A stretch of 64,000 nucleotides of DNA from positions 204,802 to 268,801 of the forward strand of contig JBAOIL010000030.1 in NCBI GenBank assembly GCA_037044975.1, in the 5' to 3' direction. How positions within the stretch are numbered: the stretch's first letter is position 1; each line of letters begins with the position of its first letter. Under the pieces are notes generated by a model. It was given only the letters and a program-made list of their open reading frames with translations. It made no database searches and was not told the DNA's origin. Below, one piece after another: positions 1-45,391 of the stretch. The stretch comes from Verrucomicrobiota bacterium. Lineage in GTDB: Bacteria; Verrucomicrobiota; Verrucomicrobiia; Limisphaerales; JADLHS01. Position numbers and translations under genes: made by a program.

Positions 1-295
1 AGAATTCGGTGAGATTTGGCGCTAAGGGGTTGGATGGTTCATGGAAAATGGCGGCACATAGGTCGGCATGCAGGGAGACTGCGCTGGCTGGTTTCCCGTG
101 TCAATCGCCGGACGCTCTCGTATTTCTTGCTTTTGCATTCCAGCCGGGGGGAATGATTTCACGCAAACCTCCGAATGCGGCTCTGGCTGAACAACTCGTC
201 TGGCAGTGTCGAAACCGTGCCCCGTTCTCATTCTTGCACGCGGTGTTTGGTGAGCAATTCGCCGTTTCGCATCCAAAGCGACCGGGTAGCCTGCT

Positions 296-901
296 TCAGG
301 CCAGAGCGCGTTCGATGAGCGATTGTTCGCGTGTGTTATACTTTAGTCTCAGCGCTTCGGCGTGCGCGATGGGCGTCATCTTTTTCCATGATTTTTGGAG
401 TGCGTTAATCATCTTCTCGTCGTCTGATTTCGCCGCGAGGGCGGCGAACTGCCGCTCAAGAAACACGAGGCACAGGGCGTCTTCAAGGACGCGGCTGTCG
501 GGATCGTTGGGGAAATTCTTTTTCAGGTTCAACTCCTGCACGCGGCGGACGGTGTCATCGTCATAGCCCACGGCACGGAGAATTTCGCCCGCCTTCTGCG
601 CGTGGAATTTCTTCAAGTCCGCACGCCATTGCAAATAACCCGGGCGCGTCATTGGGTACGAGTCGCGCGGTATGAGCCAGCGGGCGATGTGCTGGCAGCG
701 GGCCGCAAGGCGTAACGGTTCGCTGGCGGCAGGGTTGAGTTTGAGCACCCAGTCGGTGAGCCATTGGGCGTAGATCCGTTCGCGGGGATGGGCTGCTCCG
801 TCGGCGATCTCCACATGTGGATCGTGGGCATTTTTCTCATCGAACCGCTGGAGGGCGGCGGCGAGCCGTTCCGGATCTTTGGATTCAAAATGTGACTGCA
901 T
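296..901 (-). CDS. DUF4202 domain-containing protein
   Basis: 201-aa ORF with a clean ATG. The pattern (RCQHIARW...YLQWR...EDALCLVFLE) matches my memory of the DUF4202 family. The overlapping + strand ORF 9..566 has off-frame composition. Confidence 0.6.
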   Translation of the reverse strand: MQSHFESKDPERLAAALQRFDEKNAHDPHVEIADGAAHPRERIYAQWLTDWVLKLNPAASEPLRLAARCQHIARWLIPRDSYPMTRPGYLQWRADLKKFHAQKAGEILRAVGYDDDTVRRVQELNLKKNFPNDPDSRVLEDALCLVFLERQFAALAAKSDDEKMINALQKSWKKMTPIAHAEALRLKYNTREQSLIERALA

Positions 902-985
902 GACGGGGTTATTTCAGAGCCCGGGCGGGTGGGCAAGGTTGGAGATCAATTCTTTGGGGAAAAAGGTTGTCAAGCGGCATCCGCC

Positions 986-998
986 CTGCTGAACTTGG
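986..998 (+). promoter_or_regulatory. Conserved 13-nt leader CTGCTGAACTTGG (copy 1), shared with the paralog at 4840..4852
   Basis: Identical 13-mer just upstream of the ATG of both small His/Cys paralogs, each preceded by GCAT 5 nt further upstream. It falls in different reading frames relative to the two ATGs, so the conservation is at nucleotide level. Confidence 0.45.
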
Positions 999-1002
999 GG
1001 TG

Positions 1003-1332
1003 ATGCAGTCGCCGTTCCAGAGACAGTCCGTCTGGCTCAAGCCCGCGCTCGCGGGTTTGATGGCGGGGTTGGCCCTGCTGCTGGCGCTAGTCGCGTCCAG
1101 CGAAAGCCTGCATCACCAGTTGCATGGCAATTCCGCGGATGGCCAAAGCCTGTGTGCCATTTGCTCGGTGGTCCGGGGGCAACTGGATGCCCCGGCCTCG
1201 GCCTCGCCCGAAGCCGCCGTGAAGTTTTTTGGTGCATGGACCCTTCCCCACCTTGAATCGGCAAAGGCGCACCCGGTTGATGGCTCCGTAGCTTCTAGTC
1301 GCGATCCGCCGGCTTCTTTTTCTTCCCTGTAA
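1003..1332 (+). CDS. Small membrane-anchored His/Cys-motif protein (paralog A)
   Basis: The ORF track gives 967..1332 with a TTG start; the first ATG is at 1003. One hydrophobic helix (LAGLMAGLALLLALVA) is followed by LHHQLH-x8-C-x2-C-x5-GQLDA. It is a paralog of 4862..5191 (LHHFFH-x8-HHC-x8-GQIDA). Confidence 0.5.
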   Translation: MQSPFQRQSVWLKPALAGLMAGLALLLALVASSESLHHQLHGNSADGQSLCAICSVVRGQLDAPASASPEAAVKFFGAWTLPHLESAKAHPVDGSVASSRDPPASFSSL

Positions 1333-1423
1333 TTCGTCACTGGCTCTTCATGGGCCGGCTTTTTCCGTTTGGTTTTTAACCTTTGGCGTGCCGCGTCGCG
1401 TGGACGCTCTGAATACGAAATTT

Positions 1424-2893
1424 ATGAATCCTTGGAAGATGATGAGAATGACCGTTTTGGTTTCCGCGTTGGTCCTGGCGCCGCAAAGTGCGGTTCGGGC
1501 GCAGGAAACCAATCAAATAAACCAGTTGAAGCGGCAACTGGAGTTGATGCAGGAGAATTTTGAAAAAGTGCAGCGCGCCCAGCGGGAGCAGATCGAGGCG
1601 TTGACCAGACAATTGAATGAGGTTATCCACCAGCAGACGACAACGACGGAGCAAAAGAAGCTGGAGGCACAACTGGCTCTGGATTTGGCGACCAATCAAC
1701 CGGCGGCAACGGCGTCCGCAAATGCCTTGGAGAAGGCGCCGTGGTCCCCGGCGCAGCCACTCACCGTGGCCCGGAGTGGCGCGTCGTACCTAAACTTGAG
1801 CTTTGACGGCATGTTCGCCGTCGGTGGCTCCTCGGCGCAAGATATCGAAGCGCTCGAATTTGGGGGCCACGATCCCAAGCAGAACGGTTTCACCGTGCAA
1901 AACTTGGAGATGACGCTGGACGGCAAGGTAGATCCTTATTTCAAGGGTCAAGCTAACATCGTGTTGCAAATTGACCCCGATGGCGAGACGATCATCGAGG
2001 CGGAGGAGGCGTTTCTGGAAACCATTTCGCTACCGTGGAATTTGCAGGTGAAGGCCGGGCAATATTACACCCAGTTTGGACGGATCAATCCGACGCATCC
2101 GCATACATGGGATTTTGTGGATCAGCCACTCGTCATTGGCCGCTTCCTGGGGCCGGATGGCTTGCGCAATCCAGGCGCACAGGTTTCCTGGCTCGCGCCG
2201 ACGCCTTTTTATTCTGAACTTTTCCTGTCCGTGCAAAACAGTGGGGGTGAAACGGCCACGAGCTTTCGCGATGCAGCGGGCACCGAATTGATCACGCAGC
2301 ATCCCGGCGTGGACACGTCGGTGGAAAACGCGGGCGACATGCTCTATTCGCCGCGCTATGTGATGTCGTTCGATCTGGGGGATGAACATACGTTGGTGTT
2401 GGGCGGATCGGGTGCGTTTGGACCGAACGCCAGTGGGCCGGATGGGCGGACGGCGATCTACGGCGCCGACCTGTTCTACAAATGGAAGTCGCGCAATCAT
2501 GACAAGGGGTTTCCGTTTGTGACGTGGCAGACGGAGTATTTATACAGCCACTATGACGCGGCGGCCTATTCCGGCAGTCCCGGTTTTCCGGCTTCGGCGG
2601 CGACGACCATCAATAATTGGGGCCTATACTCTCAGGTATCGTACGGCTTCCGACCCCGTTGGGTCGCGTCATTACGCGGCGATTACGTGACCGGCCAGCC
2701 GGGTGATTTCTGGGCGAACCCGCTGCTCGACGATCGTTACCGTATCTCGCCGGCGCTGACTTTTTTTCCAAGCGAGTTTTCCAAGATTCGTCTGCAGTAT
2801 AATTACGATCACATCCAGAACACGGGCGTGGAAAACTCGGTGTGGTTCCAATTCGAGTTTCTCCTTGGCGCACACTCGGCGCACCGGTTTTAG
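1424..2893 (+). CDS. Putative outer-membrane beta-barrel porin with N-terminal coiled coil
   Basis: Signal peptide MNPWKMMRMTVLVSALVLAPQSAVRAQE, heptad-like QLKRQLELMQENFEKVQRAQREQIEALTRQLNEV, alternating aromatic/Gly-rich strands and a C-terminal Phe (..HSAHRF). ORF track start 1388 is GTG; the ATG at 1424 is preferred. Confidence 0.6.
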   Translation: MNPWKMMRMTVLVSALVLAPQSAVRAQETNQINQLKRQLELMQENFEKVQRAQREQIEALTRQLNEVIHQQTTTTEQKKLEAQLALDLATNQPAATASANALEKAPWSPAQPLTVARSGASYLNLSFDGMFAVGGSSAQDIEALEFGGHDPKQNGFTVQNLEMTLDGKVDPYFKGQANIVLQIDPDGETIIEAEEAFLETISLPWNLQVKAGQYYTQFGRINPTHPHTWDFVDQPLVIGRFLGPDGLRNPGAQVSWLAPTPFYSELFLSVQNSGGETATSFRDAAGTELITQHPGVDTSVENAGDMLYSPRYVMSFDLGDEHTLVLGGSGAFGPNASGPDGRTAIYGADLFYKWKSRNHDKGFPFVTWQTEYLYSHYDAAAYSGSPGFPASAATTINNWGLYSQVSYGFRPRWVASLRGDYVTGQPGDFWANPLLDDRYRISPALTFFPSEFSKIRLQYNYDHIQNTGVENSVWFQFEFLLGAHSAHRF

Positions 2894-2938
2894 CCGCTCT
2901 CCGCTTTGCACAAACCCATCACCCGATTCAAATTAACC

Positions 2939-3856
2939 ATGAACCATGTTCTCAAGCCCTTGCTGGCCGCGGCCCTGTTAACCGGCGCACTGACGGCGCA
3001 GGCGAAACTGACCATCGTCGTCACCACGCCCGACCTCGCCTCGCTCGCGGAGGCGGTCGGCGGTACGCAAATTGACCTCACCACTTTGGCCCGGCCAACG
3101 GAAGACCCGCACTTTGTGGATGCCAAACCCAGCTTCATCGTGAAGCTCAATCGTGCCGATGCCTTGATTGAAGGTGGCGCGGAGTTGGAAATTGGCTGGC
3201 TGCCGCCGCTGCTCACGGGGGCGCGAAATTCCAAGCTGGCTTCGGGTGCGCTGGGGTACATCCGGGCCAACGAAGGCATTCAAATGCTCGAAGTGCCCAC
3301 CGCACTGGACCGTTCGGAGGGTGACATCCATGCTGCGGGCAATCCGCATTTTCTGGTGGACCCGGAAAACGCGAAGATCATTGCCCGCCACCTCGCGGAC
3401 GTGTTTTGCAAACTGGACGCGGCAAATTGCGCGACCTACCAGACGAACTTGAAGAAGTTCCTGGAGGAATTGGATGTCAAAATGGTGGAGTGGCAAAAGC
3501 AACTTGCGCCCTTCAAAGGCGAGCAGATTGTCGCGTATCACAACTCCTGGGTCTATTTCGCACGCCGCTTTGGCTTGCGGATTGATTTGTTTCTCGAACC
3601 CAAACCAGGCATCCCGCCTTCGCCCGCGCATCTCGCGTCGGTGATCACGAAAATGAAGGCGGACAAGACGCGTGTCATCATTGTGGATCCGTATCTGAAT
3701 CGGCGAACGGCGGAAACCGTGGCGCGAAACACGGGTGCAACGGTGGTGGACGTGGCGCAGATGCCCGGGGGCGTAAAAGGTACGGAGGGCGGCTACATGG
3801 CCTTGATGGACTATTTGGTGAATTCGCTGGCAAAGGCGCTGATTCAAAGGAATTGA
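2939..3856 (+). CDS. Metal ABC transporter substrate-binding protein (ZnuA/TroA, cluster A-I type)
   Basis: Signal peptide, then VVTTPDLASLAEAVGG..., DPHF, NPHFLVDP, YHNSWVYFARRFGL and a C-terminal VVDV... layout typical of ZnuA/TroA-family binding proteins. ATG at 2939 (track start 2906 is TTG). Confidence 0.8.
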   Translation: MNHVLKPLLAAALLTGALTAQAKLTIVVTTPDLASLAEAVGGTQIDLTTLARPTEDPHFVDAKPSFIVKLNRADALIEGGAELEIGWLPPLLTGARNSKLASGALGYIRANEGIQMLEVPTALDRSEGDIHAAGNPHFLVDPENAKIIARHLADVFCKLDAANCATYQTNLKKFLEELDVKMVEWQKQLAPFKGEQIVAYHNSWVYFARRFGLRIDLFLEPKPGIPPSPAHLASVITKMKADKTRVIIVDPYLNRRTAETVARNTGATVVDVAQMPGGVKGTEGGYMALMDYLVNSLAKALIQRN

Positions 3857-3967
3857 AATGTACACAACATCGAAGAAGCACGACTGCCAACCGTTGGTGG
3901 GTGGCCGTTCATGCATTTCGCTGGATGCTGAGCGTTCGCGGTTGGCTGGCTGTTACCCGGGTTATTT

Positions 3968-4792
3968 ATGACTGAGATCCTCTCCGTAATGAAATGGCCG
4001 CTGGTCGCGTGTTTGTTGCTGCCGGGCATCCTGGTTTATTACGGGCTGCACATCATCCGGCGCGAAGTCATCTTCGTTGACCTCGCGCTGGCGCAGGTAG
4101 CCACGCTTGGTACGTGCGTTTGTTTGTTCCTCGGCCATGAGCCTGACGATCCGCACAACTATTTTTGGTCGCTCGGTTTCACGCTGGTGGGTGCGTTGGT
4201 GTTCACGTTCACGCGTGCGACGAGGCACGCGAAGGTACCGCAGGAGGCGCTGATCGGCATTACTTACGTCGTGGCGGCAGCGGCGGGGATTTTGTTGTTA
4301 AGCAAAAGCCCGCACGGCAAGGAGGAACTCCAACGTACGCTTGTCGGCGACCTGCTTACGGTGACGCCGGTGGAAATCGGAAAAACCGCCGCACTCTACG
4401 CCGTCATTGCGATCGTGCATTTTATCTTCCGGAAACAATTCATCCGGCTTTCCTGGGATCACGAGCATGCGGCGGCCGGCGGACTGTCCGTGCATTTCTG
4501 GGACTTTCTTTTTTACGCCCTGTTCGGTCTGATCGTGACCAGCTTCGTGCAAGTGGGTGGGGTGCTCATGGTATTCTCCTATCTCATTGTGCCAGCGGCG
4601 TGCGGGACATATCTGGCGGTCTCCCTGCCGGCGCGACTCGCTATCGGCTGGTGCGTGGCGACCATGGCGAGCGTCGGTGGACTTTACGCGTCATTCAAGC
4701 TCGACGTGCCTACGGGCGCCGCCATCGTGTGCGTGCTGGGGGTGACCTTGTTGCTGGCGGTGATCGCGCAGAAGTTCCGGCGCCCTGCTTGA
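3968..4792 (+). CDS. Metal ABC transporter permease (ZnuB/TroC-D family)
   Basis: 274 aa, multi-pass. FVDLALAQVATLG and LLSKSP...LVGDLLTV resemble the ABC-3 (ZnuB-type) permease family. It lies directly downstream of the binding protein. Confidence 0.75.
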   Translation: MTEILSVMKWPLVACLLLPGILVYYGLHIIRREVIFVDLALAQVATLGTCVCLFLGHEPDDPHNYFWSLGFTLVGALVFTFTRATRHAKVPQEALIGITYVVAAAAGILLLSKSPHGKEELQRTLVGDLLTVTPVEIGKTAALYAVIAIVHFIFRKQFIRLSWDHEHAAAGGLSVHFWDFLFYALFGLIVTSFVQVGGVLMVFSYLIVPAACGTYLAVSLPARLAIGWCVATMASVGGLYASFKLDVPTGAAIVCVLGVTLLLAVIAQKFRRPA

Positions 4793-4795
4793 GGC

Positions 4796-4810
4796 TGCAA
4801 GTCACTTGCA
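4796..4810. promoter_or_regulatory. Perfect 15-bp palindrome TGCAAGT-C-ACTTGCA (candidate operator)
   Basis: 7-1-7 inverted repeat 4 nt after the permease stop and about 50 nt upstream of paralog B. A 1-nt spacer cannot form a stable hairpin loop, so a dimeric protein site is more plausible than a terminator. It is followed by the TGCATGCA palindrome at 4832..4839. Confidence 0.35.
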
Positions 4811-4839
4811 AATAATACCATGGTTGTTGTGCATGCAAT

Positions 4840-4852
4840 CTGCTGAACTTGG
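4840..4852 (+). promoter_or_regulatory. Conserved 13-nt leader CTGCTGAACTTGG (copy 2)
   Basis: Identical to 986..998. It lies 9 nt upstream of the ATG at 4862. Confidence 0.45.
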
Positions 4853-4861
4853 TTCGTTGGA

Positions 4862-5191
4862 ATGAATCGAAGACTGAAAAAATCAAGTGACACCGTTCCG
4901 CTCCGATGGGCGCGGGCGGGGCTGTTGCTTGGCCTGTTCCTTTTTGTGCTGGCGCTGGCTCAATTCGGGGCGCTGCACCATTTCTTCCATGCCGACTCCA
5001 AGCAGCCAAACCATCACTGCGCCGCCACCATGCTGGCCGGTGGTCAGATTGACGCTGCTCCGCCATGCGCAGTAGCCGTAGTGGTTTCTCCGATCCAGTT
5101 CGTGGTGACCATCACCGAGCTGTTTCCCATTTTCGTCTCGTTTGATTTCACCCTTCCTCTCAGTTGCGGCCCGCCCGCACTCCGCTCCTAA
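4862..5191 (+). CDS. Small membrane-anchored His/Cys-motif protein (paralog B)
   Basis: 109 aa. Basic N-terminus, TM helix LLLGLFLFVLALAQFGA, then LHHFFHADSKQPNHHCAATMLAGGQIDAAPP. It aligns with paralog A over the motif region. Confidence 0.55.
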   Translation: MNRRLKKSSDTVPLRWARAGLLLGLFLFVLALAQFGALHHFFHADSKQPNHHCAATMLAGGQIDAAPPCAVAVVVSPIQFVVTITELFPIFVSFDFTLPLSCGPPALRS

Positions 5192-5336
5192 GTCGTAGTT
5201 GGTCTTTTCCGGGGTGGTGGTTCGCGCAAGCGAATTGTCGCCGCTTTCGGAAAGGAAATTTCCCTCAAGTTAATTCCGTTCGGGTTTTTCGTGCCCGGAT
5301 TCACTGCGCGTGGATCAAAAGACGAAAAGCAACATT

Positions 5337-6017
5337 ATGAAAACGAACCGGGCGATGAATCGCCGTGGTGGGTTCACTTTGATCGAATTGCTGGTGGTGA
5401 TTGCCATCATAGCAATTCTGGCGGCCATGCTTTTGCCAGCATTGGCTAAGGCCAAGAGCAAAGCGTACTCCGTCAGTTGCATCTCGAATATGCGGCAGAT
5501 CGGCATTGCAATGAACCTGTATGCCGAGGACAACAGCGGTTGGCTGCCTACCACCACCCACGGCGGCAGCACCAACGCCTCATGGATTTATCAGCTCGCC
5601 AGTCAACTTGCCAACGTGGATCGCGTCCGGCTCTGTCCCGCTGATCCCAAACGCGAGGAGCGATTGACGGCTCATGCCTCAAGCTACACTCAGAACGAAT
5701 TCGTCTTCGTGGATCTCACGGACCCGTTTGGTCGGATTTTGGAGTCCTATCGCAAATTCGCCACGATCCCGAAGCCCTCGCTGACCATCACCACGTTCGA
5801 CATTTCCGACACCGTCGGGATGAACGTGATGAACGATCACACGCATTCCCGGCAATGGCTGCTCGGCTGGAGTTCCGTCACGGCGGACATTCAACCCACG
5901 CGCCACGGCCAGTCGGCCAACTACCTGTTTGCCGACAGCCACGTGGAAAGCATTCGGGCGGAGAAACTCAAGGCGCGCATTGCTGCCGGTGACAATTTCG
6001 CCAAGCCGCCGAAGTAA
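5337..6017 (+). CDS. Prepilin-type N-terminal cleavage/methylation domain protein (DUF1559/H-X9-DG-like pseudopilin)
   Basis: [30 protein letters not shown]-terminal pilin-like signal. C-terminal [13 protein letters not shown] resembles the H-X9-DG motif region. ATG at 5337 (track start 5310 is GTG). Confidence 0.8.
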
Positions 6018-6093
6018 GAAACCAAAACAAAAATCAATTTCACGGTGCGAGCCGTGATTCACGAGACAAACCCAGTAGTAAAAAACAAGTAGC

Positions 6094-6837
6094 ATGAAAA
6101 AACAAAACACTCAGATCATCGGTCACATCCGCCAGCTTGGGCTGGCGGCACTGTTGACCACGGGCCTGGCGTCCCAGGCGCAAACCTACCTTTGGGAGGG
6201 ACACACTGATGTCGGTATCGTCTATGAACTCGGCGCGTGGAACCTGCACATCGGCCGGCACGATGACATCCCGCCGATGGAATACGCGCCCAACGAGGCC
6301 GTTCTTGGCGTGGACCTTCTGGCAGCCGGCACGACAGTGCCCGCCAATCCACAGTATGGCTTCCTCGGCACAGCGGGCAGTCCGGTCTGGATTCTGCCGG
6401 AGGTGCAAAACCCGGCCCTCCTGTTCCTGGGCTTCGGCACGGAAGAATTGGCGAACGGCCTGTTCGTCGGCGACCAGGTGACGATGAGCTTGCAAGCCGT
6501 CAGGGGGCCCGGCCAGTTCTCCGTCTATGACGTGGACATGTTCGGCAGTCCTAACGTGTTCATGAACTCTGGCAACGGCATCACCGGTGCCGATTCCATC
6601 GTGCTGCCCGCCGGCGGGCATCAACATGCGAACTGGGCTTTCAGCACGCCCGGCACCTACGAGGTGGACTTCAATGCTTCCGGCACGCTCGTGGACGGCA
6701 ATGTCTTCACTTCCAGTGGTCCGATTACCTACACCTTCGAGGTCGCGGCGGTGCCGGAGCCGAGCGCTCTGGCGCTGCTTCTCTTGGGCGGTTTCGGGTT
6801 GGCGGGTTTCGCGCGCCGTCGGAATGATCGCGCTTGA
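6094..6837 (+). CDS. Choice-of-anchor-M / TIGR03769-like surface protein with PEP-CTERM anchor
   Basis: Signal peptide; GHTDVG; VPANPQYGFLGTAGSPVWILPEVQ; GPGQFSVY; GGHQHANWAFSTPGTYEVDF. C-terminal VPEPSALALLLLGGFGLAGFARRR is a PEP motif plus TM helix plus Arg cluster. Confidence 0.8.
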   Translation: MKKQNTQIIGHIRQLGLAALLTTGLASQAQTYLWEGHTDVGIVYELGAWNLHIGRHDDIPPMEYAPNEAVLGVDLLAAGTTVPANPQYGFLGTAGSPVWILPEVQNPALLFLGFGTEELANGLFVGDQVTMSLQAVRGPGQFSVYDVDMFGSPNVFMNSGNGITGADSIVLPAGGHQHANWAFSTPGTYEVDFNASGTLVDGNVFTSSGPITYTFEVAAVPEPSALALLLLGGFGLAGFARRRNDRA

Positions 6838-6899
6838 GAACAGTTCACGCGGCGGTCCGGGTGTTCGCGTCCGGGCCGCCGCACTTTTTCCTGAATGAC

Positions 6900-7940
6900 A
6901 TGAAACAACTATTTTTCACCGCTGTCACCACCCTGGCCCTCGCCGTTGCGCCGCGCGCTTCCGCCCAGTGCTTCCAATTCACCGATGGGCATGTGGACTT
7001 GCTGGCTGTGAACTGGAACAGCGCCAGCAATCAACTCACCCTCATGGCTTCCGATGATGCTTCGGGACTGCTTTACGCCAGCAACCAGTGCGTCGTCATC
7101 TGCCCGGAGAGCATGAAATTCACCTTGCCCGCCGGCACCCCGCTCGGCAACGAGGGTGACCCGCTGTGGATTCTCCCGCAGAATCCTTACACCGGCGTGC
7201 CGTATGTCGGGATTTCCGCCGAGTCGGTCACCACCGGTGTGTTCAACGATCCGTTCACACTGACACTGACGCGCCTGGAAGGCCCGGGCCAGTTCATTGT
7301 CTGGCAGGCGGGTTCGTTCGGAGGCTTCGACGTCAAAATGGACACGCGGGACGGCATTGGCGCGAACGATTCACTGACATTGCTCGTTGGCGGACACGCC
7401 CACTACAACTGGGGCTTCACCACCAACGGCGTCTATCGCGCCTATTTCCAAGCCTCCGGCGTTCGCGTCGGCCAAAGCACCAACACTGTTTCGCCGGAGA
7501 CACCGTTCACATTCCACGTGGTGCCACTGCGCCCGTTTGAGAACTGGACTGCCACCAACTGGCCGTGCGAGTGCGCCACCAACATCATCGCCGCCAGCGC
7601 CGACCCGGATGGGGATCGAATCGTCAACGTGTTGGAATACGCCTTCGGCAATAACCCGCATGTCGCGCTCTACACGAATGTGCCCGCAATCACCTTCGTC
7701 ACCGACAGCGGAACGAATTACGGTGCGCTGCGTTTTGTCCAGGCGACCAACGCCACGGACCTCACCTTCAATCCCGTGGCCGCCGATTCCGTGACAAGCG
7801 CAATCTGGTCAAGCCTCACCAATACCGTCAGCGTCGTCACCAATGGCGCAACCCAAACAATGACTGTGCGCGACTCGCTTTCCATGGAGGGGACGACCAA
7901 TCGCTTCTACCAACTTCGCGTGAAATTGAACTACCCATGA
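6900..7940 (+). CDS. Choice-of-anchor-M / TIGR03769-like secreted protein with C-terminal DPDGD/EYAFG module
   Basis: Signal peptide MKQLFFTAVTTLALAVAPRASAQ; GHVDLL; GDPLWILPQNP; GPGQFIVW; GGHAHYNWGFTTNGVYRAYF; then DPDGDRIVNVLEYAFGNNP and a terminal ...RFYQLRV module. The stop overlaps the next gene's ATG (ATGA). Confidence 0.75.
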   Translation: MKQLFFTAVTTLALAVAPRASAQCFQFTDGHVDLLAVNWNSASNQLTLMASDDASGLLYASNQCVVICPESMKFTLPAGTPLGNEGDPLWILPQNPYTGVPYVGISAESVTTGVFNDPFTLTLTRLEGPGQFIVWQAGSFGGFDVKMDTRDGIGANDSLTLLVGGHAHYNWGFTTNGVYRAYFQASGVRVGQSTNTVSPETPFTFHVVPLRPFENWTATNWPCECATNIIAASADPDGDRIVNVLEYAFGNNPHVALYTNVPAITFVTDSGTNYGALRFVQATNATDLTFNPVAADSVTSAIWSSLTNTVSVVTNGATQTMTVRDSLSMEGTTNRFYQLRVKLNYP

Positions 7941-8791
7941 ATACCATGCTCGAAACCTCGAAACCCGCCGCACCCGCTCGTGGCGCGGCAGCCCTACCGG
8001 CCGGCCGCGATCAACTCAACGGCAATCCGGTTGGCTTCAAACCCGACGTCATCACGATCAAGAACCTGCGCATCGAGTATCGCTCGCGCGAGTTGGGCAG
8101 CCAGAAGAAACTCGCCGTGAAGGACCTTTCGCTCTCGGTTCATGCGGGCGAGGTGTTCGGTTTCCTCGGGCCGAATGGTGCGGGCAAAACCTCGACGATG
8201 AACGTGCTTTTGGGTTTCGTGCCGCCGACCAGTGGAACGGCGAACATTTTCGGCGTGAACGTGCAGCAAACCATCGCGCGGCAGCGGCTCGGTTATCTGC
8301 CGGAGTTGACCTACTACTACAAGTTTCTCACGGCGGAGGAATTGTTGCGGTTCTATTCGCGCATCTTCGGCATCGAGAAAGCCGAGCGCGAGCGGCGCAT
8401 TGATGCCGTGTTGAAACTGGTGGAACTGGAACACGCGCGCAAGCGACTCATCAAAACCTACTCGAAAGGAATGCAGCAGCGCGTCGGTCTCGCGCAGGCG
8501 CTCATCAATAATCCCGATCTGCTCATTCTCGACGAACCCACGAGCGGCCTCGATCCGCTGGGCCGCATGAAAGTGCGCGACATCATCAAACGCCTCAAGA
8601 ACGAGGGCAAAACGGTGTTCTTCTCCTCGCACGAACTCGGCGAAGTGGAAACTGTCTGCGACCGCGTTGCCATTATGCACGAGGGCGAACTCAAGGTGGC
8701 AGGTCGCGTGGACGACCTCGCGCAACAGCATCAGTGCAACCTCGAACAATTGTTCCTCAAGATCGTGGGCTATCAACCGGAGAATCTCTGA
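7937..8791 (+). CDS. ABC transporter ATP-binding protein (ABC-2/NosF/CcmA-like subfamily)
   Basis: Walker A GPNGAGKTS, signature YSKGMQQRVGLA, Walker B LLILDEPTSGLD, H-loop SSHEL. Confidence 0.9.
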   Translation: MNTMLETSKPAAPARGAAALPAGRDQLNGNPVGFKPDVITIKNLRIEYRSRELGSQKKLAVKDLSLSVHAGEVFGFLGPNGAGKTSTMNVLLGFVPPTSGTANIFGVNVQQTIARQRLGYLPELTYYYKFLTAEELLRFYSRIFGIEKAERERRIDAVLKLVELEHARKRLIKTYSKGMQQRVGLAQALINNPDLLILDEPTSGLDPLGRMKVRDIIKRLKNEGKTVFFSSHELGEVETVCDRVAIMHEGELKVAGRVDDLAQQHQCNLEQLFLKIVGYQPENL

Positions 8792-8794
8792 CCT

Positions 8795-9571
8795 ATGAAA
8801 AACTCATTTGCCGTCGCGCAGCTTGTCATTCTCGAAATGTATCGACGCAAGGACTTTTACGTCCTGTACTTTCTCACCGTGCTCATCACGGGCCTGATGG
8901 GGTCGGTGAATTTCTTCAACGATCCCAAGGTCGCCCGTTACTTGAAGGAAATCTGCCTCGCGCTCATCTGGATTTGCGGGGCATTCATCGCCATCGCCAC
9001 CACCGCACGCCAGATTCCCGCCGAGCGCGAGAGCCGCACCATCTTTCCGTTGATGGCGAAGCCCATCACGCGTGGGCAGGTGTTGTTCGGCAAATTCCTC
9101 GGCTGCTGGGTGGCGACGTGTCTCTGCCTCGTGGCGTTCTATCTGTTCTTCGGAATCGTCGCGGCGGCCAAGGAACATGACTGGCCGGTGGGAATCTATT
9201 TTCAGGCGTGGTCACTGCATTGCGTGATGCTGGGCGTGGTCATCGGCATGACGCTGCTCGGTTCGCTCGTGCTGAGTTCCGTGGCCGCAAACATCACCTT
9301 GAGCGTCGTGATCACGGCAGGAATTCTTTTCGTCGGCAGGCATCTGAACAAAGTCGCCGCGCAAATGAGCGAAACGGCGGGCGCGATGGTGAGCGGACTT
9401 TACTACGCTATCCCGCACCTGGAGTTGTTTGACGTGCGCGATCTCATCGTCCACAACTGGCCGCTCATCGGCTGGAGCATCTGGGGCATCGCGGTGGTGT
9501 ATGCGTTGGTCTATGCGGGAATGCTGGTCCTCGCGTCCTGGCTCGTGTTTCGGAGGAAATCTTTCCAATGA
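8795..9571 (+). CDS. ABC-2 type transporter permease
   Basis: 258 aa, about 6 TM segments, directly after the ATPase (3-nt gap). No similarity to ZnuB-type permeases. Confidence 0.7.
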   Translation: MKNSFAVAQLVILEMYRRKDFYVLYFLTVLITGLMGSVNFFNDPKVARYLKEICLALIWICGAFIAIATTARQIPAERESRTIFPLMAKPITRGQVLFGKFLGCWVATCLCLVAFYLFFGIVAAAKEHDWPVGIYFQAWSLHCVMLGVVIGMTLLGSLVLSSVAANITLSVVITAGILFVGRHLNKVAAQMSETAGAMVSGLYYAIPHLELFDVRDLIVHNWPLIGWSIWGIAVVYALVYAGMLVLASWLVFRRKSFQ

Positions 9572-10458
9572 AAACGAATCGTGCGTTTGTTTTACTGGGG
9601 GTTTTGTTGCTCGTTGTTTGCACCGGACTGGCTGCATCACTGGATCGCTGGTTCATGGGCTGGCAGGGCAATCGGGCCAAGAACTTTAATCCGCTGAATG
9701 TTGCCATCGGGGACGGCCAGAAGATTTTTGCCGGACAGTTTTATCGCAAGGCCGACGTGTATTTCCACAGCGGCATGTATCCGAGCATCTTTGACAACAA
9801 CGCGTCGTTCAAGACCGCCCATATCGGTGAAGACGCGGGTGCGACGGGGAGCAAGAACCAAGGTGACGAGGCCAATTATCTCGGCAAGTCACACGACATC
9901 GTGGAACAGTTCAGTCGAAATTTTTTTCCCTCCCACCACACCCATCTTGATGAGGGCGGCGTGGCGGGCGAACTCGGCGATAAATCCGACGTGCGTGAGA
10001 TTTTGCCGTGGCTGAAAATCGCTCAAGAACTCGATCCCGAAGAACCGCTCACCTACACCGTCACGGCCTATTGGCTGCGCAGCCGGATGAACAAACCGCA
10101 CGAAGCCGAACGGCTGTTGCGCGAAGGTTTGAAGGCGTTACCTGATCATCCGGCGTTGCAGTTTGAATTGGGGCGGATCTACTTTGAGAATCAAAAAGAC
10201 TCCGCCCGCGCTCGCAACATCTGGGAACACGCGGTCAAGTCCTGGCAGAAGCAGGAAGGGGTTAAAGCCGATCCCGACACGTTCATTCTGGAACAAATTC
10301 TTACTCATCTGGCCAAGCTCGAAGAGGAAGCGGGCAACTTGCCCCTCGCGATCAGCTATTGGGAACAGGCAAAGGTTTACGCCCGCAAACCCGATGTCAT
10401 TCAGCAGCGCATTGACGAGCTCGCACCGAGGAAACTCGTCCCTAACGGCCCGCCATGA
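9568..10458 (+). CDS. Membrane-anchored TPR-like repeat protein
   Basis: N-terminal TM helix (AFVLLGVLLLVVCTGLAA). The C-terminal half has TPR-like helical repeats (AYWLRSRMNKPHEAERLLREGLKALPDHPALQFELGRIYFENQKD...). ATGA overlaps at both ends. Confidence 0.6.
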   Translation: MKTNRAFVLLGVLLLVVCTGLAASLDRWFMGWQGNRAKNFNPLNVAIGDGQKIFAGQFYRKADVYFHSGMYPSIFDNNASFKTAHIGEDAGATGSKNQGDEANYLGKSHDIVEQFSRNFFPSHHTHLDEGGVAGELGDKSDVREILPWLKIAQELDPEEPLTYTVTAYWLRSRMNKPHEAERLLREGLKALPDHPALQFELGRIYFENQKDSARARNIWEHAVKSWQKQEGVKADPDTFILEQILTHLAKLEEEAGNLPLAISYWEQAKVYARKPDVIQQRIDELAPRKLVPNGPP

Positions 10459-10982
10459 ACGAGGTGGAACAGCGTTTGGGGTGGGCGTTAACGGCTTGTA
10501 GTTGCGCGCGGGCACGCATGACGCCGGTGCGCCGAGCCATTCTTGCGTTTCTCGCCGCCCGCCGATTGCCAGCCAGTCTGGAAATGATCGGGCAAGCGGA
10601 TGGCGTTCGTGGTCAATGTGGCGCGACGACGGTCTATCGGACGTTGATGCTCTTCGAGGGCGCCGAAGTCGTGCGATTGGTCGGCAGTCCGCACAAGATC
10701 AGTTACTTCGTGCTCAATGTACCCGGCGCGAGCAATCATTTCCTGATCTGTAGGCGCTGTGGTTGTCTCGCCGAACTGGCGTTGCCACCTGTGATGGAAG
10801 AAGCGATCCATAACATCGGTGCTGCTCAAGGTTTTCCATCAACCCACCATGATTGTGAAGTTCACGGTTTTTGTTCGGCCTGCCAGAGCGTCCGCGTCGG
10901 GCAGGGAATGCCATCAAAACTGTCGAGTGGCCAGGCGGCCTGGCTGCGGTTGCGACCGCCAATGGATTGCGCTGGTTTGTAG
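10455..10982 (+). CDS. Fur family transcriptional regulator (Zur-like by context)
   Basis: Winged-helix segment TVYRTLMLFEGAEVV, CxxC pairs LICRRCGC and FCSAC, and His/Asp positions between them. The start overlaps the TPR gene stop (ATGA). Confidence 0.75.
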   Translation: MNEVEQRLGWALTACSCARARMTPVRRAILAFLAARRLPASLEMIGQADGVRGQCGATTVYRTLMLFEGAEVVRLVGSPHKISYFVLNVPGASNHFLICRRCGCLAELALPPVMEEAIHNIGAAQGFPSTHHDCEVHGFCSACQSVRVGQGMPSKLSSGQAAWLRLRPPMDCAGL

Positions 10983-11075
10983 TCGGGGTGAGGTCAGCAT
11001 GTTTCTGGGGTTCGGCACTCGACTTCCGGTTCCGACTGGACGCCAACCAGTGTTCCCTCAATCATAGTCGCGGGC

Positions 11076-11972
11076 ATGAATTCCACGATCGGATTGCTGA
11101 TCGCCTACTCGGCGGTCATATTGGTCGCCTCGCTGGCCGGGGGATGGTTGCCCATGCTCGTGCGCCTGACGCACACGCGCTTGCAAACCGCCATCAGCTT
11201 TGTCGCCGGTCTCATGCTCGGCATGGCGTTGCTGCACCTGGTTCCGCACGCCATCGAACAGTCCCATTCGGTTGACCGAACCGTGGCATGGGTGCTGGGT
11301 GGTTTTCTCCTGATGTTTTTCTTGCAACGGTTCTTCCACTTCCATCATCACGATTTGCCCGAGGACGATCCCGAAGACTGCTGTCACGACCATCCCGAGC
11401 CGCACCAGCATGACCATTCACACACACTGGCGGAAAAGTCCGCGCGGCAACTCTCGTGGGCGGGCACGGCCTTGGGCTTGTCATTGCATTCGCTGCTCGA
11501 CGGTCTGGCGCTCGCGGCGGCGGTGATGGCCGAGGCCCAAGGCCACATCGGTCTGGGAGGCTTTGGCACCGCGCTGGTCGTGATCCTGCACAAACCCTTT
11601 GATGCAATGGCAATTACCACGCTGATGACCGCCAGCGGCAAATCGCGTTCGTCGCGACAATGGCTAAATGCGTTGTTCGCCCTGGCCACCCCGCTTGGGG
11701 CGATTGTGTTTTCGCTTGGCGCAATTCATCTGACGGATTCGCACGCGGCGCTGCTCGGCGCCGCCCTGGCCTTTTGCGCCGGCAACTTTCTCTGCATCGC
11801 CTGCAGCGACCTGCTGCCGGAGTTGCAATTTCATTCGCACGACCGTTTCAAGCTCTCCATCGCCTTGCTGGCGGGTTTGTCCGTGGCGGTCTTCATTGGT
11901 GGTTTTGAAACCGCCGGTCACGAAAGTCACGTCCACGAACCGGTTGCGCCCGTGCTTCCCCAAACCAACTAA
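11076..11972 (+). CDS. ZIP family metal transporter (ZupT-like) with His-rich loop
   Basis: 8-TM layout, HLVPHAIE, a central HFHHHDLPEDDPEDCCHDHPEPHQHDHSH loop, LHSLLDGLALA and FLCIACSDLLPE, typical of ZIP/ZupT. Confidence 0.85.
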   Translation: MNSTIGLLIAYSAVILVASLAGGWLPMLVRLTHTRLQTAISFVAGLMLGMALLHLVPHAIEQSHSVDRTVAWVLGGFLLMFFLQRFFHFHHHDLPEDDPEDCCHDHPEPHQHDHSHTLAEKSARQLSWAGTALGLSLHSLLDGLALAAAVMAEAQGHIGLGGFGTALVVILHKPFDAMAITTLMTASGKSRSSRQWLNALFALATPLGAIVFSLGAIHLTDSHAALLGAALAFCAGNFLCIACSDLLPELQFHSHDRFKLSIALLAGLSVAVFIGGFETAGHESHVHEPVAPVLPQTN

Positions 11973-12070
11973 CCGTGGGGCCGGGTGCTGGAAGCGCGAT
12001 TTCCTGAAACTTAAGTTGGTCATTAAATATGATTAACAATCGCAGCACCCAAAATTTTTCAAAAAAACCT

Positions 12071-12086
12071 TGTGAATTATTTCACA
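12071..12086. promoter_or_regulatory. CRP/FNR-family consensus site TGTGA-N6-TCACA
   Basis: TGTGAATTATTTCACA is a perfect match to the classical half-sites with a 6-nt spacer. It sits in an AT-rich stretch about 80-95 nt upstream of the atpB ATG (12168). Confidence 0.5.
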
Positions 12087-12167
12087 GCGAGGCAATCTGC
12101 GCGTCCTTTCGCCACCCGGTTTGGCCGGCACACCTGCCCGCTGGTGCGACAAGGTTTCAGAATTTCA

Positions 12168-13154
12168 ATGCGATTGCTTAGAATCATTTTAGCGTCGGTT
12201 TTGTTGGTCGCGGCTCCGGCAATGCTCGTTCGGGCGGCAACGGCTTCCGCGGCGCAAGACGCGCAGGCCGTGGTTGCAGACGCAGAACACGTCGCGGGAC
12301 TCGCTGCTAAGGATGTCGAGCATGCGGCGGCGCACGCGGAACACAGCGAAGGTCTTCCCGCCGCTGCACCTCATATTCAAGTCGGGCCTTTTAGCGTTAC
12401 AAATTCCATGATCATGACCTGGATTGTTGCGCTGGGAATCATCGTTTTCGCGCAAGTCGCGATGCGAAACGTCCGGGCTGTGCCGCAGGGGGCACAGAAT
12501 TTTTGGGAGTGGTTGGTGGAGGGATTATATGGTTTTCTGGAAGATATTATTGGCCACGATCTGGTCAAAAAGACTTTCTGGTTCTTTGCCACGATTTTCA
12601 TTTTCATTCTGGCCACAAACTGGGCCGGTCTGATTCCCGGAGTCGGCACGATGGGGTGGGGCACACCGGATGGGGCTGGCGCGTTGCACCATATATCCCG
12701 CCCGCTGCTCCGTGGCGTGAATGCTGACCTGAACATGACGCTGGCGATGGCCATGATTTTCTTCGTGTGCTGGACGGTTTGGGCGATTCAAGCGAATGGG
12801 CCGGGTGGGTTCATCCTGCATCTCTTTGGTCCGAAAGGCGACACGACCGGCGCTTTGAAAGTATTGATGGTCTTTGTGTTCATCGTGGTCGGCGTTTTGG
12901 AAGTGGTTTCCATTGCCTTTCGTCCGGTATCGCTAAGCTTCCGTCTCTACGGGAATATTTTTGCCGGCGAAAACATGCTGGAATCCATGGCGATCATGGG
13001 TGGTCCGTGGTTTGGTTGGCTGCTGGCGCTGCCGTTTTACGCGATGGAGCTTTTGGTCGGGGTGGTTCAAGCGCTGGTGTTCATGCTGTTAACGGCGGTC
13101 TTCACGCTGCTGATATGCACGCATGAAGAAGGTCCCGAACACGCGCAGCATTAA
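12168..13154 (+). CDS. atpB: F0F1 ATP synthase subunit a
   Basis: C-terminal SLSFRLYGNIFAGE (essential Arg motif) and multi-TM layout. Track start 12072 (GTG) overlaps the CRP-like site, so ATG 12168 (MRLLRIILASV signal-like) is preferred. There is an unusual Ala/His-rich N-terminal extension. Confidence 0.9.
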   Translation: MRLLRIILASVLLVAAPAMLVRAATASAAQDAQAVVADAEHVAGLAAKDVEHAAAHAEHSEGLPAAAPHIQVGPFSVTNSMIMTWIVALGIIVFAQVAMRNVRAVPQGAQNFWEWLVEGLYGFLEDIIGHDLVKKTFWFFATIFIFILATNWAGLIPGVGTMGWGTPDGAGALHHISRPLLRGVNADLNMTLAMAMIFFVCWTVWAIQANGPGGFILHLFGPKGDTTGALKVLMVFVFIVVGVLEVVSIAFRPVSLSFRLYGNIFAGENMLESMAIMGGPWFGWLLALPFYAMELLVGVVQALVFMLLTAVFTLLICTHEEGPEHAQH

Positions 13155-13218
13155 ACAATTTCGCCGCTTTGACCGTGTTCACTCGCGGGGGGCGGCGGGA
13201 ACAACGAAAGGCAATAAA

Positions 13219-13407
13219 ATGACTGGTAGCATTCACGTTGGTCTCGCCTGTTTGGGCGCGGCCCTGGGCGTAGGATTCATTGGCATGAAGGCTTCGGAAG
13301 CGGTCGGGCGCAATCCCGGCGCGGCGACGAAGATTCTCGTTCAAGCCATTTTGAGCACCGCGTTCGCGGAAGGAATCGTGTTCTTTGCGATCTTCCTGGT
13401 GAAGTAA
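13219..13407 (+). CDS. atpE: F0F1 ATP synthase subunit c
   Basis: 62-aa hairpin protein GLACLGAALGVGFIG...GRNPGA...AFAEGIVFFAIFL with the ion-binding Glu. ATG at 13219 lies within track ORF 13123..13407. Confidence 0.9.
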   Translation: MTGSIHVGLACLGAALGVGFIGMKASEAVGRNPGAATKILVQAILSTAFAEGIVFFAIFLVK

Positions 13408-13460
13408 TCAATGGCGCGGGGTCGCAAGACTCCGCGCCAAACCAGACCTTTTCGATAGCT

Positions 13461-14009
13461 ATGCAATATCAAATTCTTTTTGCGGCGGGTGATCTGCTTG
13501 AGCTCGCCAAGAGCACCGGAGAGCAATTCGGCTTTCAAAAGCAGTTGTTTTTTTCGCAGGTGATCAGCTTTTGCGTCGTCTGCTTTCTCCTGCATCGCTT
13601 TGCTTACAAGCCGATTCTGAAAGTGCTCGAAGAGCGCCGCACGAAAATCGCGGAGAGTCTGGCCAATGCCGAGAAAATCAAGGCGGATCTGGCCAATGCG
13701 CAGGTCAAGGTCCAGGAGATTTTAACCCAAGCGGGCGCGCAGGGAAACAAGATGATTGAGGAAGCCCGCCAGTCGGCGGCCAAGGTTTTGGAAGTGGAAT
13801 CGCAGAAAGCCATTGCCACCGCGAATGACATTATCGCAAAAGCGCGACAGGCCAGCGAGGCGGAACTCGTCCGCATGAAGACGGAGTTGCGCAAGGAAGT
13901 CGGTCGCTTGGTCGTCAACACGACGGCGAAGGTGACGGGTAAAGTTTTGACCGCAGAAGATCAAGGGCGTCTGGCCGAAGAGACAAATCGCCAACTGGCC
14001 GCCAACTAA
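13461..14009 (+). CDS. atpF: F0F1 ATP synthase subunit b
   Basis: One N-terminal TM helix, then a long charged coiled coil (RRTKIAESLANAEKIKADLANAQ...), in operon position between c and delta. Confidence 0.85.
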   Translation: MQYQILFAAGDLLELAKSTGEQFGFQKQLFFSQVISFCVVCFLLHRFAYKPILKVLEERRTKIAESLANAEKIKADLANAQVKVQEILTQAGAQGNKMIEEARQSAAKVLEVESQKAIATANDIIAKARQASEAELVRMKTELRKEVGRLVVNTTAKVTGKVLTAEDQGRLAEETNRQLAAN

Positions 14010-45313: not shown

Positions 45314-45391
45314 GCCGCCGGGGTGTGGGCGGCCCGCGTCCGCAAGAAACTTGCAGCGTTTGTTCGCGGGGTCGCTACACTTTGCGGCGTG

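Follow-up and report, generated by a model that had tools for sequence, protein, structure and literature searches.

A modular, probable zinc-starvation island with putative Zur control in a Limisphaerales-type verrucomicrobium

Several described bacterial systems resemble parts of the locus presented here. In the anchored repeat cassette (TIGR03769-TIGR03773) a ZnuA/TroA-type binding protein and an ABC-3 permease (ABC, ATP-binding cassette) go together with TIGR03769/choice-of-anchor-M surface proteins; the cassette of Corynebacterium diphtheriae (troA-dip0445, cmrA, cmrA2) is repressed by zinc and Zur (PMC6711530), and an anchored-repeat cassette is co-induced in Gardnerella vaginalis (PMC11979175). 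The Zur regulon of Pseudomonas aeruginosa includes an exporter-type ABC system, PA4063-PA4066, with an indirect role in zinc homeostasis (PMC11481552), and NosFY together with NosD constitutes an ABC system that is required for assembly of the periplasmic copper centre (PMC8457098). We analysed a stretch of 64,000 nucleotides from a Verrucomicrobiota bacterium (GenBank assembly GCA_037044975.1, contig JBAOIL010000030.1, positions 204,802 to 268,801 of the forward strand), hereafter called the window, in which 13 genes occupy about 11 kb between a DUF4202 gene and an ATP synthase operon. We read these genes as a zinc-starvation island that is composed of four modules and belongs to an uncultured verrucomicrobium of soil and freshwater (subdivision 3, Limisphaerales type), a reading to which we assign a probability of roughly 60%.

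An earlier note on this DNA had listed 13 open reading frames (ORFs) on the plus strand, and all of them are present at the positions and in the order claimed. Profile searches with Pfam and NCBIfam models confirm most of its family calls. The note had also taken the region for a Fur/Zur-linked island for the acquisition of zinc or another divalent metal; metal acquisition, most likely of zinc, is supported by a binding protein closest to AztC and a regulator that matches Zur best. Parts of the island are predicted for the outer membrane and for the periplasm or cell surface, as it had proposed, and others for the inner membrane. The region is identical to contig JADLHS010000440.1 of GCA_020848635.1 (recorded as 'Verrucomicrobia subdivision 3 bacterium'), with an even G+C content throughout the island and the flanking DNA. 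The genes and the candidate operator are listed below.

1003..1332, plus strand: small protein A, with an N-terminal transmembrane (TM) helix followed by LHHxxH...C...GQxD...PP; a paralogue of small protein B
1424..2893, plus strand: outer-membrane porin with an N-terminal coiled-coil helix, assigned with AlphaFold and Foldseek
2939..3856, plus strand: AztC-like binding protein of the ZnuA family (PF01297, 181 bits, E value 3.8e-53)
3968..4792, plus strand: ABC-3 permease of the ZnuB/AztB type (PF00950, 125 bits, E value 4.2e-36)
4796..4810, no strand: candidate Zur operator, the perfect 7-1-7 palindrome TGCAAGTcACTTGCA, found by intergenic footprinting of orthologous loci
4862..5191, plus strand: small protein B, first gene of the operon placed under the candidate operator
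5337..6017, plus strand: pseudopilin-like protein of the prepilin type (GFTLIE; N_methyl PF07963, 37.6 bits, E value 1.4e-09; TIGR02532, 31.4 bits)
6094..6837, plus strand: cM1, choice-of-anchor-M protein with a PEP-CTERM sorting signal (NF038134, 146.4 bits, cut-off 55; TIGR03769, 56.5 bits, cut-off 30.9)
6900..7940, plus strand: cM2, second choice-of-anchor-M protein (NF038134, 110.5 bits, cut-off 55; TIGR03769, 30.1 bits, cut-off 30.9)
7937..8791, plus strand: abcA, ABC-2-type ATPase, DrrA/ABCA/NosF-like (PF00005)
8795..9571, plus strand: abcP, ABC-2 permease (PF12679, 53.5 bits), with six TM helices by family analogy
9568..10458, plus strand: TM-TPR protein (gene tpr), with a TM helix, a His/Asp/Glu region (FHSGMYP...HTHLDEGG) and a TPR domain
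10455..10982, plus strand: regulator of the Fur family, most likely Zur (PF01475, 40.4 bits, cut-off 23.1); last gene of the operon
11076..11972, plus strand: ZIP importer, ZupT-like, with a His-rich loop (PF02535, 107 bits, cut-off 35.1); probably monocistronic

These genes fall into a first module of small protein A, porin, ZnuA and ZnuB, a second of small protein B, pseudopilin, the two choice-of-anchor-M proteins and the regulator, a third of the ABC-2 ATPase, the ABC-2 permease and the TM-TPR protein (hereafter the trio), and a fourth that consists of the ZIP importer alone. The overlaps of start and stop codons that had been reported at 7937, 9568 and 10455 are exact: cM2 and abcA, abcP and tpr, and tpr and fur each share 4 nucleotides (ATGA), the stop codon of cM2 thus overlapping the start of abcA, and the spacer between abcA and abcP measures 3 nucleotides (8792-8794). 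With these overlaps and this short spacing the distal five genes, from cM2 to the regulator, are tightly coupled, as had been claimed. The tpr and fur genes overlap or abut in the window and in the related loci L002 and L006, where the overlapping start codon of the regulator is kept, and are separated by a few to about 30 nucleotides in L001, L003 and L005.

Zinc appears to be the best-supported metal of the island. The best NCBIfam match of the binding protein is AztC, with the manganese protein MntC second, and its best matches in the PDB are 6xpn, 5kzj and 5w56, named there 'periplasmic solute binding protein', which we take to be AztC of Paracoccus denitrificans. Three His residues align with those of the top PDB matches (in DPH, NPH and YHN), the fourth ligand being ambiguous in the alignment. 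As aligned, His at the three ligand positions is a zinc-type pattern; manganese binders of the ZnuA family have Glu at the third. The permease scores below the cut-offs of the AztB and ZnuB equivalog models. The ZIP importer, with 8.1% His, reaches 58.5 bits against a cut-off of 252 for the ZupT equivalog and is thus a family member rather than the equivalog. The island therefore shares with AztABCD and ZnuABC an AztC-like three-His binding protein and an AztB/ZnuB-like permease, whereas it differs in equivalog scores far below the cut-offs and in the lack of an ATPase at the locus, a lack that is conserved in the whole lineage. No AztD or ZinT homologue was found at the locus. AztD acts as a chaperone for AztC, and the accessory periplasmic proteins of the island could play a similar role.

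The regulator points in the same direction. Its best NCBIfam model is that of Zur (NF008646, 48.1 bits against a cut-off of 167), and its best PDB matches are Escherichia coli Zur (4mtd, 1.7e-11) and 3mwm ('putative metal uptake regulation protein'), which we identify as Streptomyces coelicolor Zur. Its CRRC and CSAC motifs align with the Cys pairs of 4mtd. A 7-1-7 inverted repeat is the classic format of operators of the Fur family. The palindrome at 4796-4810 starts 4 nucleotides past the znuB stop codon and ends 52 nucleotides short of the start codon of small protein B, and the window contains no second perfect site. This palindrome is kept at the same place in L001, L002, L003, L005, L006 and L090. 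The shared operator that the earlier note had suggested for six positions was found at one of them: the palindrome stands 5' of 4862, with none 5' of 1003, 1424, 2939, 6094 or 11076.

In relaxed form (TGCAA-N5-TTGCA) the box occurs at 18 distinct sites in the fetched loci, which total 1.37 Mb and whose base composition would predict about 0.8. It precedes genes for fur, znuA, TonB-dependent receptors, small proteins and abcA in L072, L060, L007, L047, L055, L057, L068 and L088. More specifically, fur in L072 has the box immediately in front of it, and in L060 a box separates fur from a divergent gene. Boxes also stand before znuA in L072, at the start of module 1 in L088 and before small-protein and TonB-dependent receptor genes in L072 and L060, and abcA is directly preceded by the box in L007 and, at two sites, in L060; three further sites came from L047, L088 and L090. 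When a position weight matrix was derived from the box sites, all sites of at least 20 bits fell in loci of the kinds just listed. Since the box co-occurs with a Fur-family gene, the regulator is most likely the protein that binds the candidate operator.

Other candidate sites were set aside. Weak matches of the matrix (14-18 bits) about 250 nucleotides 3' of the trio lie inside the hisB coding sequence (ATVDLQLxCKGD). The sequence CGCAAGTCACTTGCA, seen in many loci about 327 nucleotides into small prepilin genes, most likely reflects conserved P-Q-x-x-C codons near the C-terminus of the pilin, a coincidence of coding. Near-matches of the operator at 45341 and 62410, with two mismatches each, occur at chance frequency, and the former lies inside the ORF at 45323-46333.

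The earlier note had not recognised the island as a described system. This no longer holds for the ZnuA-type transporter and the choice-of-anchor-M proteins, a part which is, judged by its protein families, homologous to the anchored repeat cassette, would function in a similar way and is a Gram-negative counterpart of it. Differences are nonetheless considerable. The link to Zur is experimental in C. diphtheriae, whereas we infer it from the operator in the island. The cassette uses an LPXTG/sortase anchor; the island has PEP-CTERM (cM1) and an unassigned C-terminal domain (cM2), and its two proteins reach 116 and 80 bits against 190 for TIGR03773. The binding protein lacks the inserted repeat of its cassette counterpart and matches the binding-protein core only (TIGR03772, 78.8 bits against 350), the permease reaches 85.8 bits against 296.8 for TIGR03770, and the cassette ATPase (TIGR03771) is absent. 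Compared with the cassette, the diderm island adds a porin, a pseudopilin-like protein, the small proteins A and B and the trio. We know of no organism in which the function of the surface proteins of the cassette has been established.

In cM1 the C-terminus VPEPSALALLLLGGFGLAGFARRR combines a PEP motif, a TM helix and a basic tail (PF07589, 27.3 bits; TIGR02595, 25.4 bits), and residues H37, D39, H176 and H178 (GxHxHxNWxF) are conserved across 18 homologues. The invariant H, D and GxHxHxNWxF positions are common to cM1 and cM2. The C-terminal domain of cM2, of about 135 residues (7530-7940; DPDGD...NVLEYAFG...RFYQLRVKL), has no Pfam or NCBIfam match and may be an alternative sorting or anchoring domain in place of PEP-CTERM.

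As paralogues that align with each other and with their homologues, small proteins A and B belong to a single family, of which a profile search collects 1849 cluster representatives. Members have a TM helix followed by LHxxxHxD...HxC...GQxD...RGPP. The family has no Pfam model: the two proteins of the window have no Pfam match even at an E value of 10, small protein A has no NCBIfam match either, and three of 75 family members weakly match DUF2946, as three do CbtB. With DUF2946 and CbtB they share a single TM pass, a length of about 100 residues, His/Cys motifs and a position just 5' of an outer-membrane channel or metal transporter, whereas the motif of small proteins A and B is distinct. 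Genes of the family precede a porin or TonB-dependent receptor gene or stand directly before abcA: the gene for small protein A is 5' of the porin gene in L001, L002, L005, L018, L085, L086 and L088, and that for small protein B is directly 5' of abcA in L018 and L021 and 5' of a TonB-dependent receptor gene in L072.

The pseudopilin-like protein scores somewhat below the cut-offs of PF07596 (DUF1559; 20.3 bits against 23.3) and TIGR04294 (HX9DG; 16.4 against 19), for which the literature yielded no functional information. Six orthologues share the invariant motifs DHTHSR and RH-x9-D-x-H, the latter in the form RH-x9-D-S/W/G-H. Invariant His/Asp motifs are thus present in cM1, cM2, the pilin, small proteins A and B and the TPR protein, and as sequence features they would fit a chain of low-affinity zinc binders at the surface and in the periplasm.

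To follow the island through other genomes, the profile of the TM-TPR protein, which has 1356 homologues, was scanned against one genome per species. It matched in 408 species genomes, and 80 loci were kept; the window proteins were then mapped onto these by tblastn and phmmer. A locus was counted as zinc-type if a gene for small protein A or B, the porin, ZnuA or ZnuB, a choice-of-anchor-M protein, fur or zip, or a Zur box, was nearby. Nearly all kept loci are labelled Verrucomicrobiota, of the Limisphaerales or Pedosphaera type. Several metagenome-assembled genomes carry implausible labels (Bifidobacteriaceae, Klebsiella, Sulfotelmatobacter, Binatia; L002, L003, L010, L023, L057, L064, L072 and others), probably because the public records were wrongly binned or labelled.

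At least four other species-level genomes, L001, L002, L003 and L005, share the 12-13 genes in identical order. Chance does not account for this order, given that the four are separate and that identities between the proteins range from 37% to 91%. Partial islands are seen in L006, L010, L025, L030 and L033. The zip gene is present in L002 and absent in L003 and L005, where atpB comes after fur, and the DUF4202 gene adjoins the island in L002 too. In L085 and L086 the set of small protein A, porin, ZnuA, (ZnuC) and ZnuB stands immediately 5' of the atp operon, and in L088 it occurs at another place. Module 1 is contiguous with atpB in L086, which locates the insertion point of the other modules between znuB and atpB. 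The conserved neighbourhood that had been expected is therefore real for the full island in four relatives, yet elsewhere the modules are separable; as they occur separately in relatives, the island is a mosaic and not one co-inherited apparatus, contrary to the single conserved apparatus initially supposed.

Within module 1 the porin has no Pfam or NCBIfam match, and sequence searches of the PDB with the porin, cM1 or abcP alone gave nothing useful. Structure was more informative and upholds its original description as a coiled-coil porin: in the AlphaFold model (mean pLDDT 74) a signal peptide and a long helix (residues 28-72) accompany a barrel of some 16 strands, and the best Foldseek matches are the trimeric porins VhChiP, OmpT, OprP/OprO and the coiled-coil porin DcaP, with E values down to 6.5e-12. 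A few of its more than 5000 homologues carry PF07642. The porin gene adjoins znuA in every module-1 locus seen.

The earlier note was also right about an importer without its ATPase, in that no gene of the ZnuC/AztA type is found in the 64-kb window. The only other ABC ATPase there, at 54260-56080, was rejected as a ZnuC since it is a fused exporter of 606 residues. ZnuC is absent in L001-L005, L010, L086 and L088 and present in L018, L021, L072 and L085. The permease is 67-88% identical in the ZnuC-less loci L001-L005, L010 and L086 and only 27-30% identical to the ZnuB of loci with ZnuC (L085, L018), a split which marks the ZnuC-less ZnuB as a distinct lineage. In relatives znuC occupies the place of the znuA-znuB spacer (3857-3967), which contains GC-rich inverted repeats, resembling repetitive extragenic palindromes in L001, L002 and L010; no znuC remnant is visible in this spacer or its equivalents in the same three loci. 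The simplest reading would be that the ATPase of ZnuAB is encoded elsewhere in the genome.

The trio forms the invariant core of the 80 loci. In the PDB, abcA matches ABCA domains and the uncharacterised ABC ATPase 1vpl above NosF (7o0y_B, 1.4e-44), NosF being the best-scoring solved bacterial ATPase with a characterised role. Its identity is 82-91% in L001-L006 and L010 and 63-76% in most other loci, barring short or truncated matches. A profile of 26 abcP orthologues has NosY as its sole PDB match (E value 9.8e-4). The TM-TPR protein has the invariant residues H67, D76, D89, D110 and H124, and AlphaFold gives a confident TPR domain at 145-290. With NosDFY(L) the trio shares an ABC-2 pair and a membrane-associated partner, itself no transporter, in a metal-related operon. 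The partner differs, however: NosD is a beta-helix, whereas the partner in the island crosses the membrane once and combines a His-motif region with a TPR domain. The context differs too (copper, with nosZ and nosL, as opposed to zinc, with no nos genes in the window). We are aware of no earlier description, in zinc biology, of a NosFY-like ABC motor paired with a membrane-anchored protein. PA4063-PA4066 is comparable in combining an exporter-type ABC transporter and periplasmic accessory proteins under Zur, whereas it belongs to the MacB/FtsX class instead of ABC-2 and has different accessory proteins.

Features outside the coding sequences of the island, together with its flanks, are given in the following list.

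296-901, minus strand: DUF4202 gene, flank on one side
976..990, plus strand: sigma-54-like -24/-12 element GGCAT-N6-TGCT just 5' of small protein A, the sole match to the pattern in the window; a promoter-like candidate
4830..4844, plus strand: sigma-54-like element TGCAT-N6-TGCT between the operator and small protein B, with the first G replaced; a weak candidate
5297..5316, plus strand: hairpin GGATTCAC-N6-GTGGATC, 20 nucleotides before the start codon of the pseudopilin and kept in five orthologous loci
6849..6891, plus strand: GC-rich hairpin of 15 base pairs with a T-run between cM1 and cM2, an attenuator or terminator; the top terminator-like site in the region
from 12072: F-type ATP synthase operon, flank on the other side

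The candidate element at 976-990 is found with the same spacing before the orthologous gene in L001, L002 and L005, and the one at 4830-4844, spaced likewise, is kept in six orthologous loci. As promoters, both would leave almost no leader before the small proteins. A scan for sigma-70 promoters gave counts at chance level only, and GAACTT before small proteins A and B was dropped as a promoter of the extracytoplasmic-function sigma type because the -10 element would fall inside the coding sequence. In the hairpin at 5297-5316, changes from U-G to U-A across five genomes suggest an RNA stem; it matches no Rfam family, and an Rfam scan of 1-13500 at E values up to 1 returned no match and hence no known riboswitch or small RNA. 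Equivalents of the hairpin at 6849-6891 exist in L001, L002, L003 and L005, and this conservation suggests that expression along the operon is graded and not, as had been implied before, uniform: small protein B, the pilin and cM1 may be expressed at a high level, with lower read-through into cM2, the trio and the regulator.

Taken together, module 1 would provide the basic route, with diffusion of zinc across the outer membrane through the porin, capture in the periplasm and ABC import driven by an ATPase from elsewhere. The operon of module 2 would start at the Zur box (4796-4810), and its products, at the cell surface or in the periplasm, would bind zinc and relay it towards the cell interior. 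Past the attenuator hairpin, the operon would run by translational coupling into the ABC-2 pair and the TM-TPR protein. The trio would not import zinc; rather, it would spend cytoplasmic ATP on a periplasmic event, in the way that NosDFY does in the case of copper: either metal would be handed over to ZnuA or zinc enzymes, or anchored binding proteins would be released and assembled. This is the step we hold least firmly. At zinc sufficiency the Zur-like repressor, encoded by the last gene, would occupy the 7-1-7 box and so regulate its own operon, as comparative genomics suggests, and the ZupT-like ZIP importer would act as a separate gene after the operon. In its boldest form the proposal is that the trio, present in about 408 species-level genomes that are virtually all recorded as Verrucomicrobiota, barring a few metagenome-assembled genomes with seemingly wrong labels, represents a novel class of periplasmic machine powered by ATP, with NosDFY or LolCDE as analogues. 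It would either pass zinc from His-cluster proteins of the envelope to acceptors or extract N-terminally anchored proteins (pseudopilins, small proteins A and B) from the inner membrane for display. Some paralogues would be adapted to zinc starvation, under Zur control and with His-rich loops, and others to cargo of the pilin type. We consider this form of the proposal unlikely as it stands.

A number of observations weigh against the zinc-starvation reading. The regulator falls far below every equivalog cut-off and lacks some His residues of known Zur regulatory sites; given this low score and these missing residues, its metal is one that we infer. No recognisable box is present at module 1 or at zip in the window, and the box in front of small protein B lies 5' of the sigma-54-like element and not over a sigma-70 promoter, so that the geometry of repression is not obvious. 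Nor does the reading account for the absence of ZnuC. As for the trio, the match of abcP to NosY is weak (22 bits), the conserved N-terminal region of the TM-TPR protein is predicted by AlphaFold with low confidence, and L090 has small protein B, pilin, cM1, cM2 and fur without any trio, so that the trio is not essential to the unit from small protein B to fur. Lastly, at about 50 of the 80 loci the trio comes after one to four tandem prepilin genes of about 125 residues, with no metal genes nearby. The last two points, together with the pseudopilin gene that also lies 5' of the trio in the clade of the window, speak for a general envelope or pilus-related module, for example one that handles N-terminally anchored prepilin-like proteins, with no role in zinc; only ZnuAB, the choice-of-anchor-M proteins, Zur and ZIP would then be zinc-related. 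Nevertheless, 27 of the 80 loci place the trio in a zinc-type context, and these fall in at least three clades of the neighbour-joining tree of the TPR protein. The boxes directly before abcA in L060 and L007 and the place of the trio inside a Zur operon tie at least one trio paralogue to zinc starvation. In the clade of the window the trio is translationally coupled to the regulator, in L072 it lies between a box-controlled TonB-dependent receptor gene and a box-controlled fur, and in L018 and L021 it follows directly 3' of small protein B and ZnuABC. Inserts that contain His after HTHLD in the TPR protein are also enriched in zinc-type loci (13 of 27, against two of about 37 other loci). Some genomes have two paralogous trios, one per context type, so both roles could exist, and the commoner place beside prepilin genes leaves room for a role in the handling of N-terminally anchored proteins. 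A trio with no part in zinc whatsoever therefore seems to us a doubtful, if arguable, alternative.

The remaining alternatives concern the metal and the direction of transport, and to each of them the zinc-starvation reading seems preferable. The island might serve another divalent metal (manganese, iron, cobalt or nickel) under a regulator of the Mur, Fur or Nur type, since the ZnuA and ZIP families include manganese and iron transporters, MntC is the second match of the binding protein, the scores behind the Zur assignment are weak and the few family members of small proteins A and B that match CbtB point, weakly, to cobalt. We regard this as improbable, however: in the alignment the binding protein has His as its third ligand, like zinc-specific AztC/ZnuA, the best matches are AztC and Zur, ZIP and homologues of the TPR protein have His-rich loops, and the related anchored-repeat cassette is regulated by zinc and Zur (PMC6711530). 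Export of a zincophore or of surplus metallophore by the ABC-2 transporter, as was proposed for the Zur-regulated MacB-type PA4064/PA4065, would agree with the classical role of ABC-2 systems as exporters, with the precedent for an exporter-type ABC in Zur regulons (PMC11481552) and with the TonB-dependent receptor genes adjoining the trio in L060 and L072. Yet neither the island nor the loci inspected in detail hold genes for metallophore biosynthesis, the clade of the window has a porin instead of a TonB-dependent receptor, and simple export leaves the obligatory TM-TPR partner with its conserved His motifs unexplained, which makes this idea strongly doubtful. The least likely alternative, in our view, is that the ABC-2 ATPase stands in for ZnuC and powers the ABC-3 permease, completing the importer with a shared motor. 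The lack of ZnuC in the window and in all members of its clade, the distinct and well-conserved lineage of ZnuC-less ZnuB and the position of abcA directly after znuB in L010 would suit it. On the other hand, abcA is always followed by its own ABC-2 permease, and the permeases of type II importers and the ATPases of type V exporters use different coupling interfaces. Moreover, L086 and L088 have ZnuA-ZnuB pairs that lack ZnuC and are not accompanied by a trio within 8-9 kb, and in L018, L021 and L072 the trio lies beside complete ZnuABC operons; these two facts make a shared ATPase unlikely.

Some additional observations were made at individual loci. Tandem arrays of two to four nearly identical prepilin genes of about 125 residues immediately 5' of the trio, as in L081 (5912-8313), are seen at many other loci, in most Limisphaerales-type genomes. 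In L081 two of the four genes are followed by a clear terminator hairpin, the spacers contain sigma-54-like elements, and the small prepilin genes have near-consensus TGGCAT-N5-TTGCT promoters. L060 (2837-11932) is a different box-controlled locus that holds, in this order, fur, divergently encoded MerC-like and HEAT/thioredoxin-like proteins, a TonB-dependent receptor, the trio and an Amidase_3 gene, Amidase_3 being a zinc enzyme of the periplasm. In L021 (991-4053) the zinc genes are adjoined by genes for an FtsX/MacB-type permease and DUF3299, next to the trio, an arrangement that resembles PA4063-PA4066, and by sequence only a similar FtsX-type permease is encoded in L015 (3505-4716) and L018 (11722-12966). 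Between znuB and small protein B, on the opposite strand, L003 and L005 encode a His-rich protein that looks lipoprotein-like by eye. In L087 (4747-5154, minus strand), and at the same place in L003, a small His-rich protein with HxxH and HHxH runs, again lipoprotein-like by eye, is encoded between znuB and the operator; it has no Pfam match and is absent from the window.

Zinc acquisition has been well studied in Proteobacteria, Firmicutes and Actinobacteria, whereas it is essentially uncharted in the Verrucomicrobiota, a phylum that is abundant in soil and freshwater. The island appears to be of the Zur-controlled zinc-uptake type, in which the trio, the family of small proteins A and B and the pseudopilin would be the uncharacterised components and the operator a newly proposed one. 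It offers five leads: a candidate Zur operator, TGCAA-N5-TTGCA, with which the regulon can be mapped across the phylum; a counterpart of the Zur-regulated anchored-repeat cassette in a diderm cell, with PEP-CTERM; small membrane proteins of a large and uncharacterised family (1849 clusters), whose genes consistently stand before those for outer-membrane channels in zinc loci; ZnuA-ZnuB pairs that lack an adjacent ATPase and form a conserved lineage; and a NosFY-like ABC-2/TPR trio that has been recruited into zinc regulons. These are concrete, testable hypotheses, no single one of which would change the paradigm. The interest would rise considerably should the trio turn out to be an ATP-driven machine for periplasmic zinc trafficking or protein extraction. 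If so, it would be the first ABC-powered step of zinc trafficking outside import and export, and it could explain the huge prepilin-like families of the Planctomycetes-Verrucomicrobia group.

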